Source of the DNA: Escherichia coli
Lineage (GTDB): Bacteria > Pseudomonadota > Gammaproteobacteria > Enterobacterales > Enterobacteriaceae
Assembly: GCF_030013205.1 (NCBI RefSeq)
Contig: NZ_CP122648.1
DNA: 64,000 bases
Reading direction: 5' to 3' (one strand)
A program made the position numbers and the translations under genes. The first letter of the stretch is position 1; the number at the start of each line of letters is the position of its first letter. The notes under the pieces were generated by a model. It made no database searches and was not told the origin of the DNA. It saw only the letters and a list, made by a program, of their open reading frames with translations. Shown here in pieces: positions 24,725-25,919 of this stretch.

Positions 24725-24890
24725 GCTGACCTCATTTCCCCTTAACGCTGGGGTAGCGGAACTGTTTGCTGAGAACACCGTGCGGTGTGTTGATGCAAAC
24801 AAGATTAGCCATGACTAACATATCGGTCAAGTGATTTTGTATGCTATAGCTAACATAATTGATGTGGTAAAAGATAACTCATTGATGATG

Positions 24891-25298
24891 TTATCTTTTA
24901 TTTGTCCGCTGACGGGCTTTTAGTAATTCTTCAAAGAGTTTATTGAAGTTTTTTACTCGAGCTCGCATTTCGGCGAGCTGGGTATCCTGTTCTGATTCTG
25001 GCAGTGCATTAAACAGCTCAAGGAGCTCTAGTTCTTTGGGGGATAAGGCAACTGGCTTCTCAACAGGTGGTGTTGGTTGCTTGTCTTCATCGCCAAATAG
25101 AATCCATGTTGGTGAGCATTGCAATACTTTGCTGAGGGCAAAAAGGTTCTTCCCTGTAGGTTCACTATCACCCCGTTCCCATTGTGATACAGACACATGG
25201 GAGATTTTCAGGGCTTTAGCAAGAGAGCTTTGGGTGTGTTTGAGGTTTTTCCGACGATACCTGATGCGTTCGCCGATAGTTAAATTTTTTGTTTCCAT
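24891..25298 (-). CDS. dicA: prophage repressor DicA (HTH_XRE, P22 C2-like)
   Basis: 135-aa ORF; HTH LKHTQSSLAKALKISHVSVSQWERG; divergent from dicC. Confidence 0.9.
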   Translation of the reverse strand: METKNLTIGERIRYRRKNLKHTQSSLAKALKISHVSVSQWERGDSEPTGKNLFALSKVLQCSPTWILFGDEDKQPTPPVEKPVALSPKELELLELFNALPESEQDTQLAEMRARVKNFNKLFEELLKARQRTNKR

Positions 25299-25332
25299 AG
25301 TTAGCTAATGCTAAATCGTATTGACTATGTTT

Positions 25333-25367
25333 TTGTTAACATCTATCTTGTTAGTTATGACTAACAA
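25333..25367. promoter_or_regulatory. putative operator in dicA-dicC divergent promoter region
   Basis: Palindrome ttgttagt-tatg-actaacaa (25348..25367) plus a related half-site ttgttaac at 25333. Confidence 0.4.
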
Positions 25368-25381
25368 TAAAGGTGTTTTAA

Positions 25382-25612
25382 ATGCTTAAAACTGACGCTC
25401 TTTTGTATTTCGGTTCAAAAACAAAACTTGCACAAGCAGCAGGTATTCGTTTGGCTTCGCTTTATAGCTGGAAAGGGGATTTAGTTCCCGAAGGTCGCGC
25501 GATGCGTCTACAGGAGGCATCTGGCGGGGAGCTTCAGTATGATCCCAAAGTTTATGATGAATATCGTAAGACGAAGCGGGCGGGGCGGTTGAACAATGAA
25601 AATCACTCCTGA
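25382..25612 (+). CDS. dicC: Cro-like regulator DicC
   Basis: 76-aa ORF MLKTDALLYFGSKTKLAQAAGIRLASLYSWKG... Confidence 0.9.
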   Translation: MLKTDALLYFGSKTKLAQAAGIRLASLYSWKGDLVPEGRAMRLQEASGGELQYDPKVYDEYRKTKRAGRLNNENHS

Positions 25613-25919
25613 ACAGGCTCGTGAGGCTCTGGATGCCTGGATATGTCGACCAGGAATGACACAGGAGCAGGCGACGATATTAATCACTGAAGCATTCTGG
25701 GCTTTGAAAGAGCGCCCGAACATCGATGTTCAGCGTGTCACATATGAAGGTGGCGCGATTGATCAGCGAGCGCTTGGCGTTATCTGGTCATCACCTGACG
25801 GAGAAATACGTCGCTACGACAGTCGCCTAAACATAATCTGTCGCGAGTGCCGGAAGAGCGAAGTTATGCAGCGCATACTGGCTTTCTATCAGGGTAATTT
25901 TCAGGACGTGGCGCAGTGA
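25596..25919 (+). CDS. hypothetical prophage early-region protein
   Basis: 107-aa ATG-initiated ORF overlapping the dicC stop by 17 nt; its TGA overlaps the GTG start of the next gene (GTGAGTG). Confidence 0.45.
   Translation: MKITPEQAREALDAWICRPGMTQEQATILITEAFWALKERPNIDVQRVTYEGGAIDQRALGVIWSSPDGEIRRYDSRLNIICRECRKSEVMQRILAFYQGNFQDVAQ

Follow-up and report, generated by a model that had tools for sequence, protein, structure and literature searches.

A perfect palindrome between dicA and dicC in an Escherichia coli Qin prophage is identical to the published DicA operator Oc

The DNA analysed here is a 64-kb stretch of Escherichia coli sequence (hereafter referred to as the window), which shows a 100% match to E. 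coli ETEC1748 and, up to about position 25782, a 99.9% match to E. coli K-12. According to the RefSeq annotation, it carries the Qin prophage at its K-12 position with the genes int, xis, exo, ydfD, dicB, ydfCBA, dicA, dicC, relBE, hokD and rem. The immunity genes dicA and dicC diverge from an intergenic gap of 83 bp (25299-25381) that is 100% identical to that of K-12. The features of this region that are central to our analysis are the following:

24891..25298, minus strand: dicA, encoding a 135-aa repressor with an N-terminal HTH_3 domain (open reading frame, annotation, Pfam and K-12 match)
25382..25612, plus strand: dicC, encoding a Cro-like protein of 76 aa with the same sequence as K-12 DicC (open reading frame, annotation and Pfam)
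25321..25349, plus strand: dicC promoter, with -35 TTGACT (25321-25326), a 17-bp spacer and -10 TATCTT (25344-25349) (promoter scan)
25348..25367, no strand assigned: operator Oc, TTGTTAGT-TATG-ACTAACAA (sequence, published assays, Reg-Seq, conservation and a weight-matrix score of 31.2 bits)

Pfam assigned DicA to HTH_3 (E = 2e-16) and DicC to P22_Cro (E = 2e-11). Moreover, residues 7-71 of DicA align to solved structures of the N-terminal domain of P22 C2 (E = 5e-20). Compared with its K-12 counterpart, DicA differs by one substitution within the helix-turn-helix, R24S. Codon 24 (25227-25229, minus strand) belongs to the first turn of helix 2 of this motif, where the protein reads HTQSSLAKAL here and HTQRSLAKAL in K-12. 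Among 62 DicA-type viral-contig loci, residue 24 is Arg in 61 and Lys in a single one (L240), and the aligned residue of P22 C2 is Ala. Downstream of dicC, we observed an ORF of 107 aa (25596-25919), in which an N-terminal YdaT-like piece is fused to a C-terminal DUF977 piece and which the RefSeq annotation gives as two pseudogene fragments. The homology to K-12 stops near 25782, at a deletion or recombination junction in the prophage replication region.

The -35 hexamer of the dicC promoter, TTGACT, is invariant across 8 immunity types. Setting the annotated -8 at 25348 places the inferred +1 at 25356 and assigns the -11 A to 25345, in agreement with the 5'RACE statement of Yun et al. (PMC3441716). 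For dicA, the promoter scan returned nothing convincing by sequence, as was likewise the case for Yun 2012 (PMC3441716) and Reg-Seq.

The palindrome at 25348-25367 reads TTGTTAGT-TATG-ACTAACAA (TTGTTAGTTATGACTAACAA as a whole) and consists of two perfect 8-bp arms around a spacer of 4 bp (TATG), as judged from a direct reading of the sequence and a pattern search. An earlier note on this DNA had described such a perfect 8-bp-arm palindrome, and arms, spacer and coordinates are all borne out. The range considered there (25333-25367) takes in both the palindrome and a half-site upstream of it. The palindrome had, however, also been described as centred in the divergent promoter region, whereas it lies off-centre at positions 50-69 of the 83-bp gap, on the dicC side, with 14 bp between its end and the dicC ATG. 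The palindrome includes the final 2 bp of the dicC -10 hexamer. Oc is located between the divergent dicA and dicC genes, over the -10 and the start site of dicC (-8 to +12).

Symmetry by itself is unremarkable at the scale of the window. The window contains 24 inverted repeats whose 8-bp arms pair perfectly across spacers of 0-8, compared to 11.3 ± 4.4 in dinucleotide shuffles, with roughly 0.015 expected per 83-bp gap. The palindrome pattern itself has a single match in the 64 kb, even with 3 mismatches permitted. The significance of the palindrome comes from its context, because the paired core is confined to the dic immunity region and because the weight-matrix score, determined with the window's own sequence left out, is high (see below). 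The core TTAG-N6-CTAA is found three times in 64 kb, each time inside the dic immunity region, at an expectation of 0.69. In contrast, TGTTAGY as a lone half-site shows no enrichment in the window (16 matches at 13.5 expected); it is the paired core, unlike such a count, that is informative.

The reverse complement of 25348-25367, TTGTTAGTCATAACTAACAA, is letter for letter the 20-bp inverted repeat that Yun et al. 2012 cloned as the DicA operator Oc (PMC3441716). The comparison with published dicA operator sequences, proposed as a check in the earlier note, therefore ends in full identity on the reverse strand. Several lines of published evidence connect this repeat to DicA. High-copy cloning of the promoter fragment was possible only with point mutations, which clustered in Oc and indicate titration of DicA (PMC3441716). 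Placed before rpsL, Oc conferred DicA-dependent repression in vivo, read as streptomycin resistance, and a single A-to-C change (Oc*) abolished this operator activity (PMC3441716). The base altered in Oc* corresponds to T25352, whose column is invariant among 34 distinct DicA-type sequences. In electrophoretic mobility shift assays (EMSA) with crude extract, a shift was seen only with DicA induced, next to bands that were independent of DicA (PMC3441716). The same study used 5'RACE to map the start of the dicC promoter, with an invariant A at -11, and reported that the -10 of this promoter is overlapped by Oc; that a 10-fold decrease of dicA goes along with a 700-fold increase of dicC; and that a dicA promoter-aph fusion requires DicA for activity (PMC3441716). 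Furthermore, the DicA site at dicC served as a gold standard in the Reg-Seq study of Ireland et al. 2020 and was recovered. A Reg-Seq preprint of 2025-26 annotates the DicA site at -8 to +12 of the dicC promoter and found excess mutations exactly there in its plasmid libraries, reflecting the titration effect already seen by Yun et al.

Most of the binding experiments suggested in the earlier note are already in print, in the form of the in vivo operator assay, the point mutant and the crude-extract EMSA. A footprint or binding assay with purified DicA has apparently not been published; DicA was insoluble, and the EMSA relied on crude extract, which also gave DicA-independent bands. Direct and unaided binding of DicA thus falls short of strict proof, and another factor may be involved, as suggested by Gagarinova et al. 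2022. The proposal of a C2-type repressor operator gains support from the identity with Oc, from the homology of DicA to P22 C2 and from the position, which is that of P22 OR1. A true operator was correctly recognised from sequence alone, but it is already known and not new; existing knowledge is unchanged and the proposed experiments have largely been done. The DicA operator Oc at dicCp of the Qin prophage in E. coli K-12 reportedly goes back to Béjar et al. 1986/1988. Relative to K-12 Oc, the site analysed here comprises the same 20 bases on the opposite strand, within an identical gap and with the same flanking genes and promoter position. The locus differs in its ETEC1748-like host, in a Qin prophage with intact int, xis and exo, and in the R24S substitution of DicA.

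To place the palindrome in a comparative frame, we gathered immunity regions homologous to this one from phages and from the genomes of E. coli. A palindrome is positioned just after the cro-side -10 in 9 immunity types (Qin, UTME-2, EA7, MEI7, BUCT708, HSP425, FORC44, mEp460 and P22). The half-sites are type-specific yet related, e.g. TGTTAGA, CCTTAGG and ATTGAGA, with ATTTAAG in P22. In Qin as well as in UTME-2, EA7, MEI7, HSP425, FORC44, mEp460 and BUCT708, the type's own half-site recurs downstream of the repressor gene at a PL-like promoter. Across seven of these loci (L003-L009, i.e., EA7, MEI7, HSP425, FORC44, P22, mEp460 and BUCT708), changes in the half-site track the N-terminal arm and helix 2 of the repressor. 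Among sibling types, TQR occurs with TGTTAG, SQA with CTTAGG, and SQN together with a changed helix 3 with TTGAG. Together, the sibling immunity types form a small natural set of variants in which specificity switching of C2-type repressors can be studied.

For the analysis of conservation, 80 loci were fetched through the protein and not through the site; 62 of them were DicA-type and yielded 34 distinct intergenic sequences. Searching viral contigs with TTGTTAGTNNNNACTAACAA gave 47 hits, 25 of them beside a DicA gene; these were left out of the conservation analysis because they had been selected for intact arms. A scan of genome contigs for TTGTTAGTNNNNACTAACAA was discarded as uninformative, because chance matches dominate when 16 specified bases are sought in 298 Gb; the matches listed were all in unrelated taxa, and none of 80 loci checked had a DicA-like gene nearby. 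Across the 34 distinct sequences, the arms show essentially no variation at positions 2-7 (TGTTAG and CTAACA). At position 8, variation is symmetrical (T/C left, A/G right), and the outer spacer bases vary too. From these natural variants, we derived the DicA-type operator consensus TGTTAG-Y-YATR-R-CTAAC, which may help annotators. Such a conservation pattern is what a site bound by a dimer would be expected to show, unlike an RNA stem. Moreover, the 8+4+8 dyad has the form expected of a P22/lambdoid-type operator, i.e., a dyad-symmetric site of ~17-20 bp whose central bases are not contacted. Conservation together with the published genetics excludes a chance origin of the palindrome.

The symmetry around Oc stretches to arms of 18 nt with 83% complementarity (25338-25377). 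We rejected this extended symmetry as probably coincidental: nowhere in the region do the 34 sequences vary more than past the right arm, a stretch that also carries the dicC ribosome-binding site.

A weight matrix was then built from the homologous loci, leaving out the window's own sequence, and scored over the 64 kb in comparison to shuffles. Oc (25348-25367) ranked first with 31.2 bits, and the best score in any shuffle was 8.9 bits. Beyond three Oc-type sites, nothing in the window exceeds this value. The two sites other than Oc are both located at the dicB-operon promoter:

24802..24821, minus strand: proximal Oc-like site, ATGTTAGT-CATG-GCTAATCT (whole ATGTTAGTCATGGCTAATCT), identified by its match to Oc; 22.0 bits, rank 2
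24837..24856, minus strand: distal, upstream Oc-like site, ATGTTAGC-TATA-GCATACAA (whole ATGTTAGCTATAGCATACAA), identified by its match to Oc; 14.8 bits, rank 3

The proximal site is conserved in DicA-type loci, and the distal site is conserved in its left half. From the sequence we infer a -35 TTGACC (24825-24830) and a -10 TAATCT (24802-24807) for the dicB operon, hexamers that the promoter scan did not call. The two Oc-like dyads flank this putative -35, with the proximal one sitting between the -35 and the overlapped -10. One Reg-Seq paper listed the location of the DicA site at dicB as unknown, and DicC sites flanking dicA have been inferred from ChIP-seq. Annotators may benefit from the exact coordinates of the two strong Oc-like sites. 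An AT-rich inverted repeat, AAAAGATAAC-N11-GTTATCTTTT (24869-24899), runs across the dicA stop codon and is followed by a short T run on the dicA strand. Located just upstream of the operators of the dicB operon, this repeat may act as a weak terminator of dicA.

Two further positions in the dicA-dicC gap resemble operators:

25323..25342, no strand assigned: degenerate middle site with TTGTTAAC (25333-25340), overlapping the -35, at the position of P22 OR2
25299..25316, no strand assigned: site abutting the dicA start codon, AGTTAGCTAATGCTAAAT, with the core TTAG-N6-CTAA, at the position of P22 OR3

The half-site in the middle of the gap had also been pointed out in the earlier note, as a related half-site 15 bp upstream of the palindrome. 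This much is real: TTGTTAAC matches the left arm at 7/8 positions, lies 15 bp upstream of the palindrome (start to start) and is conserved, with a mean entropy of 0.14 in the 34 DicA-type sequences. Because it is conserved although it resides inside the promoter spacer, TTGTTAAC is probably not neutral. As GTTAAC is self-palindromic, the half-site reads equally as GTTAACAT on the other strand, which is of the right-arm type. However, a proper partner arm is missing in either orientation. With TTGTTAAC as the left arm, the partner would be ATCTTGTT (1/8) and the site would overlap Oc; with GTTAACAT as the right arm, i.e., in the OR2 register, the partner would be GACTATGT (3/8). The half-site at 25333-25340 is also absent from the top weight-matrix hits in the 64-kb window. 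Judging from position and homology to P22, 25323-25342 is probably the published 'Om' and AGTTAGCTAATGCTAAAT at 25299-25316 is probably the published 'Oa'. For Om and Oa, two further operators predicted from sequence, DicA binding was not observed in vivo, the result for Om alone being given as data not shown (PMC3441716). This half-site is the single weak point in the earlier reading. The dicA-adjacent site AGTTAGCTAATGCTAAAT is identical to P22 OR3 in 13 of 18 positions, occupies the same position and is highly conserved (entropy 0.11); its DicA weight-matrix score is 3.8 bits (20-bp scan window 25298-25317). It could be a site preferred by DicC or part of the translation start region of dicA. 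Among the sibling types, HSP425 and mEp460 retain a recognisable OR2-like dyad, which Qin has lost.

With this information at hand, we conclude with a probability of about 0.93 that the palindrome is Oc from the immunity region in the Qin cryptic prophage and the primary binding site of the DicA repressor. DicA, a short homologue of P22 C2, occupies Oc, presumably as a dimer. The 20-bp dyad spans -8 to +12 and takes in the transcription start as well as the end of the dicC -10, so that RNA polymerase would be excluded by bound DicA and dicC kept off. The same Oc-bound DicA is needed for transcription of dicA, a positive autoregulation like that of lambda CI at PRM. The Cro-like DicC probably acts at the same sites to turn off dicA, and this would make a bistable switch. 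The sites at the dicB-operon promoter would serve to repress ydfABC-dicF-dicB. DicA is released via the antirepressor Rem, heat or urea, not via RecA (PMC10448788).

A different assignment would make the palindrome mainly a site of the Cro-like DicC, which would repress dicA from there while the effects of DicA were indirect. DicC ChIP-seq has its strongest genomic peak at this promoter, the palindromic motif obtained, TT(A/C/T)G ... C(G/A/T)AA, fits TTAG-N6-CTAA, and induction of DicC lowers dicA 48- to 84-fold. Binding of DicC, however, does not exclude DicA. Repressor and Cro share operators in lambdoid switches. Since the DicC ChIP-seq peaks flank dicA and come with a matching motif, DicA and DicC probably share their operators as CI and Cro do, and DicC probably also binds Oc. 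What speaks for DicA as the primary occupant is that operator activity in vivo needs dicA, returns when dicA is supplied on a plasmid and disappears upon one base change, and that the EMSA shift requires induction of DicA (PMC3441716). The half-sites also co-vary with the type of the DicA-like repressor, yet the N-terminal halves of the DicC-like proteins differ too, so that this co-variation does not separate the two proteins. We consider a site mainly devoted to DicC highly unlikely. Still less credible to us is that a host factor (the TetR-type YjdC or a Cnu/H-NS complex) occupies the site and that DicA acts only through it. Gagarinova et al. 2022 reported ChIP-qPCR of YjdC at the dic locus and its binding to the dicC operator region, and both the DicA-independent shifted bands and an antagonism by CnuK9E-H-NS (PMC3441716) point in the same direction. 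A host factor, on the other hand, does not predict that the site changes its sequence with the phage repressor type within the same E. coli host, and DicA is a close homologue of a repressor with a solved DNA complex.

The inverted repeat might finally be thought to act not as DNA bound by a protein but as an RNA hairpin, serving in attenuation or as a stability element. Assuming that the whole region is transcribed, its folding energy is indeed -10.6 kcal/mol (z = -3.35) for the plus strand and -8.1 kcal/mol (z = -3.3) for the minus strand. The dicC transcript, however, starts inside the palindrome at ~25356, and from there no significant structure was detected (z = -0.31). Moreover, variants at arm position 8 often break the pairing, e.g. 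TTGTTAGT...GCTAACAA, which is fine for a protein site and not favoured in a stem. We rejected the hairpin on the grounds that the dicC transcript begins within the palindrome, and give it next to no credence. A DNA operator for DicA, occupied in vivo in a DicA-dependent manner, remains our reading of the palindrome.

With respect to the other sites, we lean slightly towards Qin having kept a complete P22-like operator set, of which Oc would be just the strong member. The dyads at the dicB promoter (24802-24821 and 24837-24856) would then be DicA/DicC sites, and 25333-25342 and 25299-25316 would be weak sites used only cooperatively, or preferentially by DicC, in turning dicA off. A sequence-based proposal of 1988 is said to have placed three operators at each promoter. 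This proposal and the DicC ChIP-seq peaks flanking dicA largely anticipate the idea of a P22-like set.

Among the closest known systems is that of P22. The DNA-binding domains of P22 C2 and DicA are homologous, with 58.7% identity over DicA residues 8-70 (tblastn). The c2-cro gap of P22 can be aligned to the Qin gap with the invariant TTGACT -35, making Oc the positional equivalent of OR1. Both OR1 and Oc are dyads with a 4-bp central spacer and an equal TTA-N8-TAA spacing, whereas the half-sites differ (TTGTTAGT in Qin and ATTTAAG in P22). The three Qin positions align with P22 OR3, OR2 and OR1 at a 25-bp spacing. While P22 has three good dyads, only Oc is strong in the Qin gap; the middle position holds only a half-site, the dicA-adjacent one scores 3.8 bits, and both reportedly do not bind DicA alone. 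With its 135 aa, DicA does not have the C-terminal half of the 216-aa P22 C2. Unlike P22 C2, it also does not have the Ala-Gly bond that RecA-mediated cleavage requires, and its relief comes from the antirepressor Rem (PMC10448788). The arrangement further resembles OR1-OR2-OR3 of lambda, with divergent repressor and cro genes and three operator positions about 25 bp apart. As in lambda, the repressor acts negatively on the lytic promoter and positively on its own, and a second operator set is found at a PL-like promoter. In contrast to lambda, cooperative occupancy of the middle site is not in evidence for Qin, and the Qin operators share no sequence similarity with the lambda operators. Moreover, the Qin prophage is cryptic, and the output of its switch is cell-division inhibitors.
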